Shown here one piece after another: positions 4,716 through 26,300 of a DNA stretch of 64,000 nt (position 1 is the stretch's first letter; the number at the start of each line of letters is the position of its first letter). The stretch is taken from the NCBI RefSeq assembly GCF_048403405.1, contig NZ_CP183129.1. The stretch is one strand, 5' to 3'. Both the position numbers and the translations under genes were made by a program. This stretch comes from Escherichia coli. Its GTDB lineage: Bacteria > Pseudomonadota > Gammaproteobacteria > Enterobacterales > Enterobacteriaceae. Under the pieces are notes generated by a model, which made no database searches, was not told the DNA's origin, and saw only the letters and a list, made by a program, of their open reading frames with translations.

Positions 4716-5654
4716 TTCCTCGCGCGTTGGCGCACAATCACCGCCCCGATGCCCGACAACCCACGACGCCACTGCATTGCCCAGTAATACGGCATCCGCC
4801 AGTGGCAGACCAGAGGCCAGCCCGGCAAGTACGCCACCTGCATGACTGTCGCCCGCCCCAATGGTGTCTACAACTTGCGTTGGAAATGCCGGAATGCAGC
4901 CAGAAGCGTCGTTGCTGAAATACCATGCGCCCTCTTTATCGAGACGAATGATCAACGGCGCGGCAAATTTCTCCTGCCATTGCTTGCCAAGTGTTGTTAT
5001 CTCTGCGGATAAAGCAAAACGTTCGGCGGCAATCTCAGCCTCCTGACGATTGAGTGACACTAAAGGTCGACAGGCCATGATCCGCGCCAGTAATGCGTCC
5101 GGGATATCGCCAATACGTGGGCCAAAATCGATAAACGGCGTCACGTCTTGCAGCTTTTCCAGCCATTCCACTAACAATTCGCCGCAGGGCGAGGCCAGTT
5201 GATAACCGGAAAAATAGAGCAGGCTGCCAGGTGCAACGGTTAATCGCGCCAACCATTGGCGATTCCACTGATTTTCCACACCGCTGAACGACATAAACGT
5301 GCGTTCACCATCCGGCTCAACCAGCGCCAGACACCAGCCGTTATCGCCTTCGGCGTTATCGATCAGGCTGATTAAGCCCTCTTTTGCCATCCGGTTGCGA
5401 ATAATCTCCGCCCACACGCCCTGACCGAGCGGCAAGGCATTACCCGCTTCGATGCCGAGGCGCTTTAACGCCACGACAATATTCAGTGCGCAGCCGCCAA
5501 CGTTAACGCTCTGCTGTTTCAGTTCGATATCGCACCCACGCCAGGGGAGGGCATAAGCGTCGGCGATCACATCAATGACCGCCGCGCCGACGACCATCAC
5601 CGACTGACGCGTGGTTAATTCAGGCAGCAGCGTGTGTAATCGAGCGCCGCTCAT
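4689..5654 (-). CDS. yegV: PfkB-family carbohydrate/nucleoside kinase, 321 aa
   Basis: ORF track; ribokinase-like motifs (DTIGAGD near C-terminus); matches YegV as recalled. Confidence 0.8.
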   Translation of the reverse strand: MSGARLHTLLPELTTRQSVMVVGAAVIDVIADAYALPWRGCDIELKQQSVNVGGCALNIVVALKRLGIEAGNALPLGQGVWAEIIRNRMAKEGLISLIDNAEGDNGWCLALVEPDGERTFMSFSGVENQWNRQWLARLTVAPGSLLYFSGYQLASPCGELLVEWLEKLQDVTPFIDFGPRIGDIPDALLARIMACRPLVSLNRQEAEIAAERFALSAEITTLGKQWQEKFAAPLIIRLDKEGAWYFSNDASGCIPAFPTQVVDTIGAGDSHAGGVLAGLASGLPLADAVLLGNAVASWVVGHRGGDCAPTREELLLAHKNV

Positions 5655-6655
5655 ACCGCCTCCCGTTGTTGACGATATTTCGCCAGCGCTGTGGCATAGC
5701 GGTTGAAATCAAGCTGATTTACCGCATCCAGTTCCGCCTTTAACGCAGGATCGATAGCGTTAACGCCATGCAACGCGCCACAAATTGCTGTCGCCATAGC
5801 ACCGATGGTGTCTGTGTCGCCGCCAAGGTTAGCGCACAGGACGGCGCAACGGTTCGGGGCGGTTTGTGCCAGTTCAACCAGCGCAATGGCGCACGGAACG
5901 GACTCAATAGTGCTGGTACCTGCGCCAACGACCTGGTAAAGCTGTTCGCTGGCGGATTCGGTGCCGTCGGCATTGCGCACAATTTTCAGCGCAATCTCCA
6001 GACGTGCTGCCAGTGAGGCGCTGAAGGTAGTGATGCGTTTTTGTTGAGCATGTCGCGCAATTGAAGGCAGTGAATCAACAATTGCTGACCAGCTTTCTCC
6101 GTCAATGGCACGAGAAATCGCCCATGCGATGACTACCGCCCCCGCAACCGCCAGATCGGATTTATGTGTCGGGCTGGAGGCCAGCGCCACATCATCAATA
6201 AAGGAATCAACATCACGCGCCGGAAGCAAACAACCTAATGGCGAGACGCGCATCGCTGCGCCGTTGGTCACGCCGTTATTTTCCAGTTCAGCAACGGGTT
6301 TACCGTCGCGAATGGCGTTAAGCGCAATCTTCGAGGTCGGACCTAGTACGTTTTTGTTAAAGGCGTCGAAACGCAGCGCCCAGTCGAGAATATTACGCCC
6401 AATCAGATCCGGATCGATCTTGCCTTCACGTTCCAGTAACGCATCTGCCAGACACAGCGCCATCGAGGTATCGTCGGTGAATTCGGCGCGGTTAAAATAA
6501 CAGGCTGCGTTATTCTCCTTTGGTCCAGGCAGAAAACGATCAATCCAGCCAAAGTGTGCTTTAACGCGGCTGCGTGGCCAAAGCTCGGAGGGCATCCCCA
6601 TCGCATCCCCTAACGCCTGCCCATAAAGAGCACCGAGAATACGTTCTGTTTTCAT
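5651..6655 (-). CDS. yegU: ADP-ribosylglycohydrolase-family protein, 334 aa
   Basis: ORF track; matches YegU as recalled; stop/start overlaps with yegV and yegT. Confidence 0.8.
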   Translation of the reverse strand: MKTERILGALYGQALGDAMGMPSELWPRSRVKAHFGWIDRFLPGPKENNAACYFNRAEFTDDTSMALCLADALLEREGKIDPDLIGRNILDWALRFDAFNKNVLGPTSKIALNAIRDGKPVAELENNGVTNGAAMRVSPLGCLLPARDVDSFIDDVALASSPTHKSDLAVAGAVVIAWAISRAIDGESWSAIVDSLPSIARHAQQKRITTFSASLAARLEIALKIVRNADGTESASEQLYQVVGAGTSTIESVPCAIALVELAQTAPNRCAVLCANLGGDTDTIGAMATAICGALHGVNAIDPALKAELDAVNQLDFNRYATALAKYRQQREAV

Positions 6656-7929
6656 TTAACTTCCCCTTGTGTCAACGCAATATCGCGATCATCGACCTTG
6701 ATAGCCGTAATTTCGTTGTCGGATTCGCGGAAAAAAATCATGAACAGCACGGCGATAATGGCAATCATCACCGCGCCAAAAGTCCACATCCCGGACCAGT
6801 TGAAAGTCAGTCCGTTTACCGGTTCCTGATAAGCGAACATCTTTTCCATCATCACACCGCCAAGACGATAGCCGAGCAAACTGCCGAAGCCCTGGCAGCA
6901 GAGCGTGATCAGCCCCTGCGCAGCGGTACGCATATGCACGGGGGCTTTTTTATCGACATAGATGTAAGCGGTAACGTAGTAAAAATCGTAACTTACTCCA
7001 TGCAGCAAAATGCCGAGGAACAGTAACGCGTAGGTGAAATATTCATCCGCACTACCGTAAATAAAGAAGCCATAGCGGATCGCAGCGGTGACCAGACCAA
7101 GTAATAATACCTTTTTGATACCAAAGCGTTTGGTAAAAAACGGCAATGCCAGCATAAAGAAGATTTCAGAAAACTGGCCGAGCGTCATCCAGCCAGTGGC
7201 GTTTTTCATACCGACTTCGGTCAGATAACCGTTGGCAAAGATGTAATAGAACGCCAGTGGCATCGCAAACAGGAATGAACAGAAGAAAAAGACGAGGAAG
7301 TTTTTATCGCGCAGCAGGATCAGCGCATCCAGGCCGAGCATGACTTTAATGTCCATTTTGCCGGTGCTTTTTGGCGGCGTGTCGGGCAGGAAAAACGCAA
7401 ACACACCGAGCAGAGCAGAACTTCCGGCGGTAATCAGCAGCGGGATGTTAGTCGGAGAGATATCGGCATAACCCAGCATTTGCGGCAAAAATCCACATGC
7501 CAGACCGGAGGCAATCCAGCCGATAGTGCCCATCACACGAATGCGTGGGAAATCACGCTCCACATCCGGCACGTTGGCAAAAGCGATACTGTTAGTCAGC
7601 GCAATGGTCGGCATATAGGTTAGCGAGTAGGCCAGCAGTAACGGGAAGAACCCGGCAAAAGTGGTCTGTTGCGCAGCGAAATACATCAGCGCCGCACCAG
7701 CGAACATCAATACCGCCAGCACTTTCTGCGCCGAGAAAAAGCGGTCAGTGATGGAGCCAACCAGAATTGGCGACAGGATCGCCGCAATGGCGGTACAGGC
7801 ATACGACCAGCCAATTTCTCCGGCACTAAAACCGCTTTTACTTAACCACAACCACAATGGCACAAACCACGCGCCCCAGATAAACCATTCAACAAACATC
7901 ATGAACGACAGCTTTGCTGTTGTTTTCAT
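6652..7929 (-). CDS. yegT: MFS nucleoside:H+ symporter-family transporter, 425 aa
   Basis: ORF track; polytopic membrane protein; matches YegT as recalled. Confidence 0.8.
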   Translation of the reverse strand: MKTTAKLSFMMFVEWFIWGAWFVPLWLWLSKSGFSAGEIGWSYACTAIAAILSPILVGSITDRFFSAQKVLAVLMFAGAALMYFAAQQTTFAGFFPLLLAYSLTYMPTIALTNSIAFANVPDVERDFPRIRVMGTIGWIASGLACGFLPQMLGYADISPTNIPLLITAGSSALLGVFAFFLPDTPPKSTGKMDIKVMLGLDALILLRDKNFLVFFFCSFLFAMPLAFYYIFANGYLTEVGMKNATGWMTLGQFSEIFFMLALPFFTKRFGIKKVLLLGLVTAAIRYGFFIYGSADEYFTYALLFLGILLHGVSYDFYYVTAYIYVDKKAPVHMRTAAQGLITLCCQGFGSLLGYRLGGVMMEKMFAYQEPVNGLTFNWSGMWTFGAVMIAIIAVLFMIFFRESDNEITAIKVDDRDIALTQGEVK

Positions 7930-8185
7930 CTTTTAATTCCTTCATGACAGGTAATGTAAGGTACGCGATGACAATACCATTTAATGATACCTTTTAAATA
8001 CCTTTGCGGTGAAAACTTGACCGCGGTAACATTTTTTCTGATGAATCGAGCCAACAGAAAACGCTGAAAAAACATCCAAAAGATGGAAAAACTCGCCTGT
8101 AAAGACCAGGATTATGATTGCCCGCAAAAGGTGGGCCAGGACAATCCATAGCCGATATCCAATCGGAATTTACGGGAGCATAGTA

Positions 8186-9238
8186 ATGACAGATATTGCG
8201 CAGTTGCTTGGCAAAGACGCCGACAACCTTTTACAGCACCGTTGTATGACTATTCCTTCTGACCAGCTTTATCTCCCCGGACATGACTACGTAGACCGCG
8301 TGATGATTGACAATAATCGCCCGCCAGCGGTGTTACGTAATATGCAGACGTTATACAACACCGGGCGTCTGGCTGGCACAGGATATCTTTCTATTCTGCC
8401 GGTTGACCAGGGCGTTGAGCACTCTGCCGGAGCTTCATTTGCCGCTAACCCGCTCTACTTTGACCCGAAAAACATTGTTGAACTGGCGATCGAAGCGGGC
8501 TGTAACTGTGTGGCGTCAACTTACGGCGTGCTGGCGTCGGTATCGCGGCGTTACGCGCATCGCATTCCATTCCTCGTCAAACTTAATCACAACGAGACGC
8601 TAAGTTACCCGAATACCTACGATCAAACGCTGTATGCCAGCGTGGAGCAGGCCTTCAACATGGGCGCGGTGGCGGTTGGTGCGACTATCTATTTTGGTTC
8701 GGAAGAGTCACGTCGCCAGATTGAAGAAATTTCTGCGGCTTTTGAACGTGCGCACGAGCTGGGCATGGTGACTGTGCTGTGGGCCTATTTGCGTAACTCC
8801 GCCTTTAAGAAAGATGGCGTTGATTACCATGTTTCCGCCGACCTGACTGGTCAGGCGAACCATCTTGCGGCAACCATAGGTGCAGATATCGTCAAACAAA
8901 AAATGGCGGAAAATAACGGCGGCTATAAAGCAATTAATTACGGTTATACCGACGATCGCGTGTACAGCAAGTTAACCAGCGAAAACCCGATTGATCTGGT
9001 GCGTTATCAGTTAGCTAACTGCTATATGGGCCGGGCTGGGTTGATAAACTCCGGCGGTGCTGCAGGCGGTGAAACTGACCTCAGCGATGCAGTGCGTACT
9101 GCGGTTATCAACAAACGCGCTGGCGGAATGGGGCTGATTCTTGGACGTAAGGCGTTCAAGAAATCGATGGCTGACGGCGTGAAACTGATTAACGCCGTGC
9201 AGGACGTTTATCTCGATAGCAAAATTACTATCGCCTGA
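8186..9238 (+). CDS. fbaB: Class I fructose-bisphosphate aldolase, 350 aa
   Basis: ORF 8114..9238; start moved to [10 protein letters not shown] to match the FbaB N-terminus as recalled. Confidence 0.85.
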
Positions 9239-14934: not shown

Positions 14935-15714
14935 ATGACGATGAATTCATTCGAGCGAAGGAATAAGATCATCCAATTAGTGAATGAACAGGGAACCGTG
15001 CTTGTTCAGGATCTGGCGGGAGTATTTGCTGCCTCGGAAGCGACAATCCGTGCCGATTTGCGCTTTCTCGAACAAAAAGGCGTAGTTACGCGCTTTCATG
15101 GCGGTGCGGCGAAAATAATGTCCGGTAATAGTGAAACCGAGACTCAGGAAGTTGGGTTTAAAGAGCGATTTCAGCTCGCCAGTGCGCCAAAAAACAGAAT
15201 AGCGCAGGCGGCAGTCAAAATGATCCACGAAGGGATGACCGTTATTCTCGACAGCGGAAGTACCACAATGCTTATCGCCGAAGGTTTAATGACCGCCAAA
15301 AATATCACGGTGATTACCAACAGTCTCCCGGCGGCGTTTGCCCTTTCCGAAAATAAAGACATTACTCTGGTCGTCTGTGGTGGGACCGTCCGCCATAAAA
15401 CACGCTCGATGCATGGTTCCATTGCCGAGCGTTCATTGCAGGATATTAATGCCGATTTAATGTTTGTCGGTGCTGATGGTATTGATGCGGTTAATGGTAT
15501 TACGACCTTTAATGAAGGTTATTCGATTAGCGGGGCAATGGTCACAGCCGCAAATAAAGTGATTGCCGTTCTCGATTCATCGAAATTTAATCGTCGCGGT
15601 TTTAATCAGGTACTGCCAATCGAAAAAATCGACATTATTATTACCGACGATGCTGTGTCAGAGGTGGATAAACTGGCATTGCAGAAGACACGGGTGAAAT
15701 TAATTACGGTGTAG
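14935..15714 (+). CDS. gatR: DeoR-family repressor of the gat operon; intact here
   Basis: ORF track 259 aa (start may be 14941); N-terminal HTH and C-terminal DeoR sugar-binding domain; no IS interruption. Confidence 0.8.
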   Translation: MTMNSFERRNKIIQLVNEQGTVLVQDLAGVFAASEATIRADLRFLEQKGVVTRFHGGAAKIMSGNSETETQEVGFKERFQLASAPKNRIAQAAVKMIHEGMTVILDSGSTTMLIAEGLMTAKNITVITNSLPAAFALSENKDITLVVCGGTVRHKTRSMHGSIAERSLQDINADLMFVGADGIDAVNGITTFNEGYSISGAMVTAANKVIAVLDSSKFNRRGFNQVLPIEKIDIIITDDAVSEVDKLALQKTRVKLITV

Positions 15715-15795: not shown

Positions 15796-16695
15796 TTAAC
15801 GCAATAATGGACAATCTGGTGGTAATCGACAACGCAACGCCGCCGGAAGTATTTCAATATGGAAGTTTTGCCCACTCAACGGTTCGCCATCAAGATTAAA
15901 AGTGATTTCGTGTGGGGCTTGTATATCAAACCACGACGAAGCGCCTTCGATAATATTCGGGTTATCTTCGTCAGATTTTAAGGTTGATACGAGAGCTGGA
16001 AGAATTTCATCGCCGGTAAAAATGCGCAGTTGCAGCAGGCCATCGTTAATTAACGCGTTCGGGCACAATTGCTGACCGCCACCGGCCTGACGCCCGTTAC
16101 CAATACCAATGACCAGGGCGTCACCTTGCCAGTGAAAGTTTTCACCGCGGATCTCACAACGGTCCGGTTGCAGAGTATCCATGCGCATTAAGCCATGAAT
16201 GATGTAAGAGACGCCACCCAGCGCGGCTTTTAATTTTTCCGGCGTTTCTGTGGTAATACGCGTCCCAAATCCGCCTGTCGCCATATTAATAAAACAGGTT
16301 TGTTTGTTGACCTGCGCCATATCTATCGCAATGGCGTCACCGGCAATTGCCAGTTTCAGCGCCTTATCCAGTGCCTCAGGAATCCTTACACTGGTGGCAA
16401 AATCATTGGCGGTTCCTAATGGCAAAATTCCTAGCGCGGGTATGTCATCCCCCTCACACTGAATCAACGCCGTAGAAACTTCATTAATGGTGCCATCGCC
16501 ACCACCGGCAATCACCGTTGCGACGCTCAACTTCCGGGCCTCCTCTACATATCGTGCGGCATCGCCTTTCTCCCAAGTGACCCGCACATGGATCGTCATT
16601 CCTTCCTCACGCAACAGCATAATTGCTTCGCGCAATGGTAAATTGTCAGTACTTTTGCCATTAAGAATCAGTAAGCTGGCGGGAAATTCTGCCAT
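15796..16695 (-). CDS. yegS: Lipid kinase (DAGK-catalytic-domain family), 299 aa
   Basis: ORF track; GGDGT motif; matches YegS as recalled. Confidence 0.85.
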
Positions 16696-17109
16696 GATCG
16701 TATGTGCCTTTATGATTGGTCTGTAGATAGTGTAGAGCAGAAAAGAAAAGGTGGAGTCAGAACAGGATGAAAGTCGGAGGATAAAAAATCAGTTCAAGTA
16801 TGGAGGATTCGGTGGTTACCACCAGGAGCTTGCAATGGGGACAGTGAATGTTAACGGTAGCCATAGGTAAATTTCAAAAAAGAGCATATACCTAATATTC
16901 AACTAAACAGTGGCATCTTCAATATACTATTAAAAATATATTAACCCCCCCATGGGGTTACCCGGAAGGGCCTCCGTGTATGTAATTCCTACTTATGTAG
17001 GAAATGTTGTACAGAACATTTATTATAATCCTATTCAATTATAATAATCATGCCATTATTATATTTAAACACCAGAGCGTGTCGTTGGTATTTAATGGGG
17101 GAAGGTGAG

Positions 17110-17427
17110 ATGAAAAAGATAGCTGCTATATCATTAATTAGTATTTTTCTTATGTCTGGTTGTGCTGTGCATAATGATGAAACAAGTATCGGTAAATTTG
17201 GTCTTGCATATAAAAGTAATATTCAGCGTAAACTCGATAACCAATACTACACCGAAGCCGAAGCTTCTTTAGCCAGGGGCAGAATTTCTGGTGCAGAAAA
17301 TATAGTAAAAAATGATGCAGCTCATTTCTGTGTTACTCAGGGCAAAAAAATGCAGATAGTTGACCTGAAGACAGAAGGTGCAGGATTACATGGCGTCGCT
17401 CGTCTGACATTCAAATGTGGAGAGTGA
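17110..17427 (+). CDS. yegR: Small putative lipoprotein, 105 aa
   Basis: ORF 17050..17427; start placed at MKKIAAISL with lipobox LMSGC; AT-rich gene. Confidence 0.7.
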   Translation: MKKIAAISLISIFLMSGCAVHNDETSIGKFGLAYKSNIQRKLDNQYYTEAEASLARGRISGAENIVKNDAAHFCVTQGKKMQIVDLKTEGAGLHGVARLTFKCGE

Positions 17428-17584
17428 GAATATTTTTTGGTAAGCGTCAAACATGCGCGTTCTGATTGTGCGTAGCCGGAACCTGTACGAGCACGATGCC
17501 GTTAAGTGAAAGGCATCGTGCTATGAAGGGGGATTCTATCGATGTGGTCAATGGAAGACGGTGACCAGGATACGGCTTATGCAT

Positions 17585-17611
17585 AAAAAATAAGCCCGTG
17601 TAAGGGAGATT
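17585..17611. other. Phage P2 attB core-like sequence (aaaaaataagcccgtgtaagggagatt) at the cyaR 3' end, unoccupied
   Basis: 27-mer read from sequence; matches the P2 attachment core as I recall it; no prophage genes flank it here. Confidence 0.5.
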
Positions 17612-17671
17612 ACACAGGCTAAGGAGGTGGTTCCTGGTACAGCTAGCATTTTATGGGTTATGTTTTTCAGC
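17585..17671 (-). ncRNA. cyaR: CyaR (RyeE) Hfq-dependent sRNA
   Basis: Reverse complement reads GCUGAAAAACAUAACCCAUAAAAUGCUAGCUGUACCAGGAACCACCUCCUUAGCCUGUGUAAUCUCCCUUACACGGGCUUAUUUUUU, matching E. coli CyaR as recalled. Confidence 0.85.
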
Positions 17672-17755
17672 GAAACGGATGATAACCTTAATAAATGCAG
17701 CTGTATGTGATCGGTTTCTAAGAATTTTCCATCCGGGAAAAATAATCGAAATTAA

Positions 17756-19117
17756 TCACTTACCGTGGGGGTTACGCGTGGTTTCCCCGGAGAAATTACG
17801 CATCAGGAGCGCGTAATTTAGCTCAAGATCCTGCGGCACCGGGATCCACACAGTATAACCATCGCCTGGTGCGACCGGCATAGCTTCACCTTTGGCGTTT
17901 TCCATATGCTCAAGGGTAAAGTTAATGTTGCCTTGCGGCGTCATCAGCTCAAGGCTGTCGCCAACGGAGAATTTATTTTTCACCGCTACCGCCGCGAGGT
18001 CGCCCTTGCGCTCACCGGTAAACTCACCAACAAACTGCTGGCGGTTAGAAACTGAATAACCGTATTCGTAGTTCTGATAATCGTCGTGAGTATGACGACG
18101 CAGGAAACCTTCGGTATAGCCACGATGCGCCAGACCTTCCAGAGTTTCCAGCAGGCTGGTATCGAATGGTTTGCCCGCAGCGGCATCATCGATAGCTTTA
18201 CGATAAACCTGTGCGGTGCGTGCGCAATAGTAGAAAGATTTGGTACGGCCTTCGATTTTCAGCGAATGCACGCCCATTTTGGTCAGGCGTTCTACATGGG
18301 CGATGGCGCGCAGATCTTTCGAGTTCATGATGTAAGTGCCGTGCTCATCTTCAAACGCGGTCATATACTCGCCCGGACGCTGGGCTTCTTCGATCATAAA
18401 CACTTTGTCAGTTGGTGCGCCGATACCCAGCGTCGGCTCAACATTTTGCACCGGAATCGGCTCGTACTTGTGTACGATGTTGCCAACGTCATCTTCTTTC
18501 CCTTCCTGGACGTTGTACTCCCAGCGGCAGGCGTTGGTGCAGGTGCCCTGGTTCGGGTCGCGCTTGTTGATATAGCCAGAGAGCAGGCAGCGACCGGAGT
18601 AGGCCATGCACAGCGCGCCGTGAACGAAGATCTCGATCTCCATATCCGGCACCTGATTACGAATCTCTTCAATCTCTTCCAGCGACAGCTCGCGAGAGAG
18701 GATCACGCGGGTCAGTCCCATTTGCTGCCAGAATTTCACCGTCGCCCAGTTCACGGCGTTAGCCTGTACCGAGAGATGGATCGGCATTTCAGGGAAGTGC
18801 TCGCGCACCAGCATAATCAGCCCTGGATCGGACATAATCAGCGCATCCGGCCCCATTTCCACCACCGGTTTCAGGTCACGGATAAAGGTTTTCAGCTTGG
18901 CGTTGTGCGGTGCAATGTTGACCACGACATAAAACTTTTTCCCCAGCGCATGGGCTTCATTAATGCCGAGCTGAAGATTTTCGTGGTTGAATTCGTTGTT
19001 GCGCACACGCAGGGAGTAACGTGGCTGGCCCGCATAAACAGCATCTGCGCCATAAGCGAAAGCGTAACGCATATTTTTCAGCGTTCCCGCCGGGGAAAGG
19101 AGTTCCGGTTTAAACAT
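17756..19117 (-). CDS. yegQ: Peptidase U32-family protein (tRNA uridine hydroxylase TrhP family), 453 aa
   Basis: ORF track; matches YegQ as recalled. Confidence 0.85.
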   Translation of the reverse strand: MFKPELLSPAGTLKNMRYAFAYGADAVYAGQPRYSLRVRNNEFNHENLQLGINEAHALGKKFYVVVNIAPHNAKLKTFIRDLKPVVEMGPDALIMSDPGLIMLVREHFPEMPIHLSVQANAVNWATVKFWQQMGLTRVILSRELSLEEIEEIRNQVPDMEIEIFVHGALCMAYSGRCLLSGYINKRDPNQGTCTNACRWEYNVQEGKEDDVGNIVHKYEPIPVQNVEPTLGIGAPTDKVFMIEEAQRPGEYMTAFEDEHGTYIMNSKDLRAIAHVERLTKMGVHSLKIEGRTKSFYYCARTAQVYRKAIDDAAAGKPFDTSLLETLEGLAHRGYTEGFLRRHTHDDYQNYEYGYSVSNRQQFVGEFTGERKGDLAAVAVKNKFSVGDSLELMTPQGNINFTLEHMENAKGEAMPVAPGDGYTVWIPVPQDLELNYALLMRNFSGETTRNPHGK

Positions 19118-23311: not shown

Positions 23312-26300
23312 TTACTCGGTTACCGTTTGTTTAGGTTTACGCGAAAAACGCAGCCGCAGACGGTCGAAAAAGAGATACACCACCGGCGTGGTATACAGCG
23401 TCAGGAGCTGACTCATTACCAGACCGCCGACAATGGTGATCCCCAGGGGTTGCCGCAGCTCCGAGCCGTCACCGCCCGACAATACCAGCGGCAGCGCGCC
23501 AAACAGTGCTGCCAGGGTGGTCATCATAATCGGGCGAAAACGCAGCAGACAGGCCTGGAAAATAGCTTCCTGCGGCGTCAGGTTACCGTGCCGTTGGGCT
23601 TCAAGCGCAAAATCGACCATCATAATGGCGTTTTTCTTCACGATGCCGATTAATAGCATGATCCCTATCAGGGCGATTAGGCTGAACGGGGCATTGAACA
23701 GCTCCAGCGCCAGCAGCGCTCCAACGCCCGCCGAGGGCAGGGTGGAGAGAATCGTCAGCGGATGTACGTAACTCTCGTAAAGGATACCCAGCACGATATA
23801 CACCGTGGCGATGGCGGCGATAATCAGGATCACCTGCGAGTTCATCGTCTCCTGGAATACCTGCGCCGTGCCGGCAAAACTGCCGCGCACCGTCGAAGGC
23901 ACGCCAAGTTGCGTCATTGCGCGATCGATCGCCGCACTGGCGTCCGAGAGCGATTTCCCGGTCGGCAGGTTGAACGAGATGGTCGAGGCTGCCGATAATC
24001 CCTGATGATTCACCGATAGTGGGGCATTCGCCGGTTGCCATTTAGCGAAATACGACAGCGGGATCGCTTTTCCTTCGTTATTGATAACGAACATTTTTTC
24101 CAGCGCGCTGATGTCCTGGGTATAGCGCGGATCCACTTCCATCACCACTTTATACTGGTTCATCGGCTGGTAAATGGTCGAGATTTGCCGCTGACCGAAG
24201 GCGTTATTTAAAAGGCTGTTGGCGGCCTGTACATCGATTCCCAGCCGTGCCATGGTGTCGCGGTCGTAAACCAGATTCATCTCCGCGCCGTTATCCTGCT
24301 GATCGGAGTTCACGTCCGCCAGTTCCGGCAACGTCGCCAGTTTTTTGCGGATTTTCGGCTCCCATTCGCGCAGTGCCGCCAGGTCGTCGGATAACAACGT
24401 GTACTGGTAGCTGGCGTTCGACTGACGCCCACCAACGCGAATATCCTGTACCGCCATCAGGAACAGATTCGCCCCCGGTTCTTTCGCCAGTTTTACGCGC
24501 AGACGGTCGATAATTTGCTGCGCCGTTTCGCTGCGTTCGTCGCGTGGCTTGAGGGTGATAAACATCATCCCACTGTTCACCCGCGAACCGCCGGTAAAGC
24601 CGGTGACATTATCCACCGCCGGATCGTCACGGATAATTTTCATAAAATCCTGCAACTTACCGCGCATCGCCTGAAACGAAATACTCTGATCCGCCTGTAT
24701 CCCGCCCATCAACACGCCGGTGTCCTGCTCCGGGAAGAAGGTTTTCGGGATCGAGATATACAGCCAGATATTCAGCGCAATGGTGCCAAGCAGCACCACG
24801 CCCACCAGACGGGTATGATTGAGCACCCATTTCAGCGACTTGCCATAGCCTTGTTGCAGGGCTACCAACATGCGACCAAAACCACGCAGTCGCTTTTGCT
24901 CGCGCGGCTTGCTGGCTTTCAGCATCCAGCCACACATCATCGGCGTTAGCGTCAGGGAAACCAGCAACGAAATACCAATGGCGACAGAAAGCGTCACGGC
25001 AAACTCGCGTAACAGTCGGCCCGGCAATCCGCCCATCAACAGCAGCGGTAGGAACACCGCCACCAGTGACAGACTCATCGACAGCACCGTAAAACCGACT
25101 TCGCGAGTACCTTGTAGCGCGGCCTGTAGCGGTTTCATCCCCGCTTCCAGATGACGGGCAATGTTTTCCAGCACCACGATGGCGTCATCCACCACAAAGC
25201 CAGTGGCGATGGTGAGCGCCATTAACGAAAGGTTATTGAGACTGAATCCGCACAGGTACATCGCCGCAAACGTACCAATCAGCGAAACCGGCACCGCAAC
25301 GGCGGGAATAATAGTGGCGCGACCCGAGCGCAGGAATAAAAAGACCACCAGAATCACCAGCGCCACCGAGATAATCAGCGTTTGCTCGACTTCTTCCAGC
25401 GAGGCGCGAATGGTGGGGGAGCGATCCTGGGCAATTTGCAGATCAATTGCCGCCGGAATGGTTTCCTGCAACTCCGGTAATTTTGCCCGGATGCTGTCAA
25501 CCGTCTGGATAATATTGGCTTCCGGCAGCTTGCGGATCATCAGCAAAATAGCCGGTTTGGCGTTGGTCATCCCGGCGTTGCGCACATCCTGCACCGAGTC
25601 GGTCACCGTCGCCACATCGCCCAGACGAACCGCGCCGCCGTTGTTGTAATGAATAATCAGCGGCTGATATTCAGCGGCGGTTTTTAGCTCATCGTTGGTC
25701 TGGATCTGCCAGCGGTGAGTGCTATCTTCCAGCGCCCCCTGCGGTTTACGCACGTTGGCATTGCTGATGGCGCTGCGCACATCGTCCAGCGACACGCCCT
25801 GATTAAACAGCGCCTGCGGATTCAGCCCGACGCGTACGGCGGGCAGCGAGCTGCCGCCAACATCGACATCACCGACACCGTCGATTTGCGAAATCGTCGG
25901 AGCCAGCTGCGTCGAGGCGAAATCGTACAGTTCACCCTGCGAATAAGTATCGGACGTTAGCGTGAGGATCATAATTGGCGCATCCGACGGGTTCGCTTTG
26001 CGATAGGTCGGGCGGCTGGGCATCCCGCTGGGCAGCAAACTTTGTGCAGCGTTGATCGCCGCCTGCACATCGCGCGCTGCGCCGTTGATATCCCGGTCAA
26101 AATCAAACTGCAAAATAATGCGCGTGCTGCCGAGCGAACTACTGGAGGTCATTTCACTAACCCCGGCAATGCGCCCAAGTGAGCGCTCCAGCGGCGTGGC
26201 AACGGAAGACGCCATTGTTTCTGGTGACGCACCGGGCAGCGAGGCGCTGACCATAATCACCGGAAAATCGACCTGCGGCAGCGGGGCGACCGGCAGCATA

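Follow-up and report, generated by a model that had tools for sequence, protein, structure and literature searches.

The 64,000-nucleotide stretch of Escherichia coli DNA that was analysed here (the window) contains the gene order gatD, gatR, yegS (minus strand), yegR (plus strand), cyaR (minus strand), yegQ/trhP (minus strand), yegP, baeR, and baeS (Table 1). The 2-kb stretch around the site described below was 100% identical to E. coli strain TUM14771. The small RNA gene cyaR (ryeE) lies directly between yegR and yegQ, as the initial annotation of this DNA had stated, and its product matched the Rfam family CyaR/RyeE (RF00112) over the entire model (positions 1-85 of 85) with a score of 100.7 bits (gathering threshold, 47). 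The 27-bp sequence AAAAAATAAGCCCGTGTAAGGGAGATT, which the initial annotation had placed in the 3' end of cyaR, is indeed located there and overlaps the last 24 nt of the gene; the terminator loop, its 3' arm, and the U-tail all fall within the 27-mer. A search of the whole window detected this 27-mer only once, on the plus strand; no second match with three or fewer mismatches was found in the window, and none was expected from shuffled sequences. The terminator itself was called at 17620..17593 on the minus strand with the tail TATTTTTTAT, and folding assigned a free energy of -15.9 kcal/mol to its hairpin. A pair of CRP-like half-sites, TGTGATCGGTTTCTAA, at 17706..17721 is centred approximately 42 bp upstream of the start of the cyaR RNA and represents a candidate CRP site of this gene. 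The transcription of cyaR is mentioned as CRP-dependent in PMC3333887, with reference to earlier literature. Two further observations concern the neighboring sequences. An imperfect 28-nt inverted repeat (71% complementary; window 17703..17763) extends across the CRP-site region of cyaR and the stop codon of yegQ, and gatR (DeoR/GlpR family; 14935..15714) is an intact ORF of 259 aa in the window, with a partial pseudogene listed at this place in the K-12 record.

Table 1. Positions of the genes, attachment-site elements, and predicted relics around cyaR in the window.
Feature	Position	Strand	Evidence
yegS, lipid kinase; ancestral left neighbor of cyaR	15796..16695	-	ORF and annotation
Predicted ancestral B arm (original yegS-cyaR spacer)	16696..16782		Homology to E69
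Putative attL relic: decayed left core copy AAAAAATCAGTTCAAGTATGGAGGATT, 19/27	16783..16809	+	Best non-self match to the 27-mer
Putative decayed P' arm relic (int-side arm of a P2-type attP)	16810..16846	+	Alignment to P2
yegR, predicted lipoprotein of 105 aa	17110..17427	+	ORF and annotation
Stable hairpin	17490..17522	+	Folding
Putative decayed P-arm relic TCGATGTGGTCAATGGAAGACGGTGACCAG	17539..17568	+	Local alignment to the P2 Int P-arm site
att core (attB, P2 locI type), intact, 27 bp	17585..17611	+	Match to the P2 attP core
cyaR (ryeE) sRNA gene	17588..17673	-	Rfam CyaR/RyeE
cyaR terminator hairpin (U-tail 17585..17592)	17593..17620	-	Folding and terminator scan
cyaR promoter region	17674..17755	-	Read from the sequence
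yegQ/trhP, right-hand neighbor (B' side)	17756..19117	-	ORF and annotation

The 27-mer, which the initial annotation had named as the attachment core of phage P2, was identical at 27 of 27 positions to the annotated attP (Int core site) of the P2 genome (AF063097, 24356..24382), and BLAST against 50,697 phage records extended the match with P2 to 28 of 28 nt (24355..24382). In the P2 record, ogr, the ogr terminator, the Int P-arm site (24293..24320), and an IHF site are annotated to the left of the attP core, and the Cox sites, the P' arm, and int to its right. The window shares the 27-bp core with P2 attP and presumably with locI, without any material difference, and its orientation relative to ogr and int is that of real lysogens. 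We take 17585..17611 to be the site named locI in the P2 literature, which P2 prefers for integration into E. coli C and whose core is reportedly identical to attP; this presumed equivalence draws on the sequence identity and on the annotation of the P2 record. The gene ryeE was already known as a phage target in E. coli (Bobay et al., PMC3603311, citing Wassarman 2001), and the title of the study by Barreiro and Haggard-Ljungquist (1992; cited in PMC8421802) refers to P2 attachment sites and a P2-like remnant in E. coli K-12 derivatives. The P2 site at the 3' end of cyaR is an ordinary feature that was already known, and its free state is not unusual enough to merit further attention.

Integration at this site would involve strand exchange between the attP core and the identical sequence at 17585..17611, catalysed by the P2 integrase, a tyrosine recombinase, together with IHF. 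Established knowledge of tyrosine integrases suggests that, in this strain as well, the Int/IHF exchange would occur within these 27 bp. The phage would bring its own copy of the core, and its insertion would rebuild an intact cyaR; the prophage would come to lie between yegR and cyaR, with D, ogr, and the P arm beside cyaR, and int beside yegR. The core alone suffices for the attB of tyrosine integrases (PMC3448106). The identity of the core and the occupancy of the same site in other strains suggest that the attB in the window, which is free, would be fully competent. Phages that integrate into the 3' ends of other structured RNA genes (tRNA, tmRNA, and sRNAs) likewise place the core over a terminal hairpin and restore the gene with the phage copy, whereas the cyaR target differs from the tRNA-arm targets in being the terminator of an Hfq-type sRNA. 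The sRNA gene ryeB/sdsR is a phage target in Salmonella (PMC3333887), and P2-type integrases are described as usually integrating between genes (PMC3448106).

The occupancy of the site was surveyed in 5,426 complete E. coli genomes using junction-sized queries. The uninterrupted junction (query window 17500..17680) was present in 4,217 genomes (77.7%), the attL junction (flank, core, and P2-type P' arm) in 811 (14.9%), and the K-12-type junction (flank, partial core, and D') in 356 (6.6%), in a genome set that is biased toward clinical and laboratory strains, such that these percentages describe the database and not nature. The unoccupied B-core-B' arrangement was the commonest state, and the window was collinear with the 4,217 genomes over the junction. 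All three occupied genomes that were opened contained a P2-like prophage with its D-ogr end adjoining cyaR; the stretch shown extended from the terminase to D-ogr in NCCP 13717 and O157:H7 TR01, and from the tail sheath gene to D-ogr in elppa10. In such a lysogen, CyaR was intact and kept its Rfam score of 100.7 bits, since the last 24 nt of the gene are supplied by the core that the phage brings. The 811 attL junctions and the three sampled prophages bear out the proposal that the site serves as a landing pad for P2-like elements.

Scanning IMG/VR for the core returned at least 120 stretches. Among the matches listed, there were 122 core copies, comprising approximately 79 B-core-P' junctions, 42 P-core-B' (cyaR) junctions, and one free attP. 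Pairs of cores on a single contig, again among the matches listed, were approximately 30-34 kb (10 pairs), 47 kb (one pair), or 10-17 kb (five pairs) apart. The spacings of 30-34 kb and 10-17 kb therefore indicate that both complete and deleted P2-like elements occur, and the pair that was 47 kb apart may represent a tandem or composite element. Short elements bracketed by the same core included examples with 10,168 bp and 16,070 bp between the cores. P2-type insertion at cyaR accounts for the variable length of the yegR-cyaR interval, and the site predicts where P2-like prophages would land in this strain. The cyaR att junction can also be used as a clean marker for occupancy typing, and a suitable annotation label for the interval would be a P2-type attB at the 3' end of cyaR in its free state, as found in approximately 78% of complete E. 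coli genomes.

Neither the ORF list nor tblastn with Int and Ogr revealed any P2 genes between yegR and cyaR in the window. The same interval in E. coli MG1655 contains yegZ, a gpD fragment annotated as a "phage late control D family" pseudogene, and ogrK, which amount to approximately 620 bp that are missing from the window. Alignment indicated that the K-12 layout begins with the left flank as in the window and continues with a truncated core (its first approximately 19 nt), to which the 3' portion of gene D is joined. Next come ogrK and its terminator, after which an intact P arm leads into the full core and cyaR. The MG1655 annotation and this alignment agree with the statement in the initial annotation that K-12 carries a P2-like remnant (ogrK, yegZ) at cyaR; the 27-mer matches the P2 core, and the K-12 arrangement is not empty. 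The cryptic remnant of K-12 shares with the window the locus, the core, and the B arm with its old P-arm relic, but it possesses its own intact terminator, P arm, and IHF site in front of the core, none of which are present in the window. The complete attR in K-12 is said to be the reason that P2 avoids the site there. The description of the site in the window as empty is correct with respect to recent elements, given the lack of P2 genes between yegR and cyaR and the contiguous junction, but it does not hold for the left flank, which appears to be an older P2-like fossil. The interval is very probably a chromosomal P2-type attB in the 3' end of cyaR that is free of any recent element and has an older P2-like fossil as its left flank.

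Sequence comparison indicates that 16783..17584 is the remains, approximately 0.8 kb in length, of an older P2-like element that was integrated at the same core. This assignment is based on the combination of a relic of the right end, the absence of the segment in relatives, a relic of the left end, and a low GC content (30-44% in the segment vs. approximately 52% in the flanks). In a scan for the cyaR seed in one genome per species, E. coli E69, E. whittamii, and Escherichia sp. E1V33 lacked yegR, and their yegS started approximately 110 bp from the 3' end of cyaR. This arrangement, with the same spacing and no yegR, was also detected in Atlantibacter, Kosakonia, Klebsiella indica, Raoultella, and others. 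Homology to E69 ended at 16776 and restarted at 17585, the first base of the core, and 16777..17584 was missing in E69. The window sequence 16705..16776 was 97% identical to the yegS-cyaR spacer of E69, which runs directly into the core. Direct repeats of the core are present on the same strand at 16783..16809 (19/27) and 17585..17611 (27/27).

Apart from the core itself, no sequence on the two strands of the window (128,000 positions) matched the core as well as the left copy, which sits exactly where the homology to the yegR-less locus ends. Alignment of 16783..16846 with the core and P' arm of P2 yielded 44 identical columns out of 64 and a score of 20, compared to -6 ± 3.7 for shuffled sequences (reached by 0 of 5000 shuffles), and none of 5000 shuffles attained the score of the P' part alone. 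When the left relic was aligned locally without a position constraint, 69 of 500 shuffles reached its score, which is not significant; the significance of the left relic depends on testing the predicted position. An undecayed attL, consisting of the ancestral spacer, the core, and TAGGGTGTCACCAGTAGGGGC, was found at the same position in modern lysogens of yegR-less strains and in E. albertii.

At the right end, 17539..17568 (TCGATGTGGTCAATG-GAAGACGGTGACCAG) matched the Int P-arm site of P2 (24293..24320; TCGATGTGGTCAATGTGTGGAC-GTGACCAG) with a local alignment score of 38, compared to 17 ± 2.3 for shuffled sequences (reached by 0 of 2000 shuffles), and alignment of the right flank of the core with P2 revealed nothing comparable. 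The P2 arm consensus is tgTGGaCa (PMC3448106). Within the P-arm relic, the Int arm-type repeat TGTGGTCA is intact at 17543..17550, the second repeat is mutated, and the stretch with the IHF site has been deleted. With one repeat and no IHF site, the relic P arm probably no longer assembles an intasome. Other E. coli copies harbored a longer version of the P arm, GGGATCAATCCGTATTTACAG, that bridges to the P2 arm. No coding relics of Int or Ogr were detected by tblastn in the segment (best E-value, 0.49), and the putative fossil is recognised by its ends and not by its genes. Its contents would comprise a decayed attL (core copy and P' arm), the cargo-like yegR, a hairpin, and a decayed P arm, and the attB of today would correspond to the attR end of the fossil.

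The only ORF retained in the putative fossil is yegR. YegR belongs to Pfam PF27694, a predicted lipoprotein that is almost confined to E. coli and Shigella, and its few distant homologues are located in an IS-rich island or at unrelated chromosomal loci. The gene may have arrived as phage cargo, or it may have been inserted later. The designation of YegR as a phage protein, as the match to phrog_21109 would imply, was rejected, as tblastn of the 50,697 phage records detected yegR in only two records, both with host flanks. These records, ON470606.1 and AY639599.1, include parts of the E. coli chromosome, namely gatR-yegS-yegR in the former, and yegQ, given as a "putative protease", in the latter. 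The 97% match of ON470606 to the left flank was therefore not accepted as a phage P arm identical to the host, and "Phage TP" AY639599 was likewise discarded as a phage match because it also represents host flank. The host flank in these records probably explains phrog_21109, which is YegR itself, and phage records that contain host DNA can seed false phage families.

Taken over the species, it is likely that the yegS-cyaR interval of nearly all E. coli contains an unannotated P2-like prophage fossil of approximately 0.8 kb, that its sole gene yegR is domesticated cargo, and that the P2 attB is the attR end of this fossil with one Int arm-type repeat. In the secondary literature that was searched, we found no paper stating this reading of the fossil and of yegR. 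The reading would be a modest evolutionary addition, in which yegR and the left flank are phage-derived and one sRNA terminator has been reused repeatedly.

Elements at the same site were also identified in other species. Citrobacter youngae contained gpD, ogr, and a good P arm beside cyaR, and its core variant AAAAAATAAGCCTGCGTAAGGGAGATT matched its own terminator. Enterobacter sp. Bisph1 harbored an int fragment and a P-arm relic at the 3' end of cyaR, with a core variant that matched the stem of its own cyaR terminator. E. albertii NBRC 107761 carried an insert of 3.4 kb in the yegS-cyaR interval (locus coordinates 4965..8400), with a well-preserved attL relic at one end and a P-arm relic at the other. 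This insert encoded cdtB (363.9 bits vs. a cut-off of 189) and ORFs of 258 and 181 aa at the positions of cdtA and cdtC. The cyaR att site of E. albertii thus seems to contain a P2-like fossil that houses the cdt operon, and cdt-V has been reported on P2-like prophages (Svab 2013, as cited in PMC5136569). As in the window, the P-arm relic lies directly beside the cyaR core in E. albertii and Bisph1, and in E. albertii the attL relic on the ancestral B arm has also been kept. The remnants differ in age, in size (3.4 kb in E. albertii, approximately 2 kb with an int' stub in Bisph1, and 0.8 kb in the window), and in cargo, with the cdtB operon in E. albertii vs. yegR in the window. Given the remnants in C. 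youngae, Bisph1, and E. albertii, the cyaR terminator looks like a site that has long been used by the P2 family and has gathered remnants. If this is true, the K-12 remnant, the cdt island of E. albertii, and the elements of 10-47 kb would, together with the putative fossil, make the cyaR terminator a record of serial P2-like capture and erosion across Enterobacteriaceae. The cargo left behind at this site would be yegR in the case of E. coli, and the cdt operon in that of E. albertii.

Other explanations of the site and of its left flank were considered. The 27-mer might be kept merely as the terminator of cyaR, with a P2 match that is without consequence and a site that no phage can use in this strain. 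Such an explanation would agree with the constraint on the core at the RNA level, as reflected in its terminator hairpin, and with the majority of genomes being unoccupied. However, it is hardly credible, as a P2-type attL was present at this very position, with the same flanks, in 811 genomes, the prophage ends were bracketed by this same core, and the core, which is all that an attB of tyrosine integrases requires (PMC3448106), is complete in the window. The attB might also be virgin, in which case the likeness to the P2 arms would be due to chance or to phage arms copied from the host, and yegR would be part of the ordinary ancestral chromosome. The segment contains no phage genes, yegR is annotated as a normal chromosomal gene, and the left relic did not reach significance when it was first aligned without a constraint, all of which are in line with a virgin site. 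Nevertheless, this explanation is highly improbable because yegR-less Escherichia relatives and other genera lack the segment, with a breakpoint exactly at the edge of the core, and because the best core copy among 128,000 positions occurs on the same strand at the predicted left end. Furthermore, both arm relics exceeded every shuffle, less decayed intermediates are known, and the same arms surround functional attP sites in phages of other hosts.

A further explanation concerns the stretch between yegR and cyaR and its hairpin. The initial annotation had reported a hairpin with a 9-bp stem at 17501..17529; a hairpin is indeed present between the two genes, but it was found at 17490..17522 with a perfect stem of 11 bp (14-nt arms at 93%), a loop of 11 nt, a free energy of -20.8 kcal/mol, and a z-score of -4.8. 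It is located at the position of the ogr terminator of P2, and the terminator scan gave no terminator call and no T-run on either strand. The stem was conserved in 82 E. coli copies, and no compensatory changes in the stem were observed among the 14 variants in these copies. A candidate covariation (GATGTC with AAGCATC) was rejected because the changes affected adjacent base pairs and not a single pair. The hairpin may close the yegR transcript as a stem-loop at its 3' end, or it may be a terminator that has decayed. The stability and conservation of the hairpin, together with an ORF of 45 aa on the minus strand (17447..17584), would be expected if 17428..17584 were primarily an unannotated functional element, for instance a small RNA or ORF or a hairpin with a regulatory role, for which the phage history is secondary. 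This is unlikely, since Rfam detected no family besides CyaR, the hairpin has neither a U-tract nor compensatory substitutions, the 45-aa ORF came from a mechanical list without support, and the stretch aligned position for position with the part of P2 attP that extends from the terminator to the P arm.

A P2-like fossil with the attB at its right end remains the preferred reading of the interval, and several smaller features were observed within the segment. The yegR-less state was considered as a common polymorphism of E. coli and was rejected, as it was essentially absent from the RefSeq complete E. coli genomes, in which the one two-piece match represented an internal deletion of 306 bp. 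This deletion, in FDAARGOS_1077, corresponds to window 17167..17472 and has removed most of yegR, which suggests that the putative fossil is still eroding. A 171-bp AT-rich stretch that is absent from the window was found in FDAARGOS_144-type genomes (approximately one quarter of a spread sample); the position of this indel corresponds to approximately 17436 in the window, just past the yegR stop codon, within the putative fossil and away from the att core. Another terminator-like hairpin, TAACCCCATGGGGGGGTTA followed by a T-run, is located inside the segment on the minus strand (16942..16960) and points toward yegS, which it could insulate from transcription from the cyaR side.
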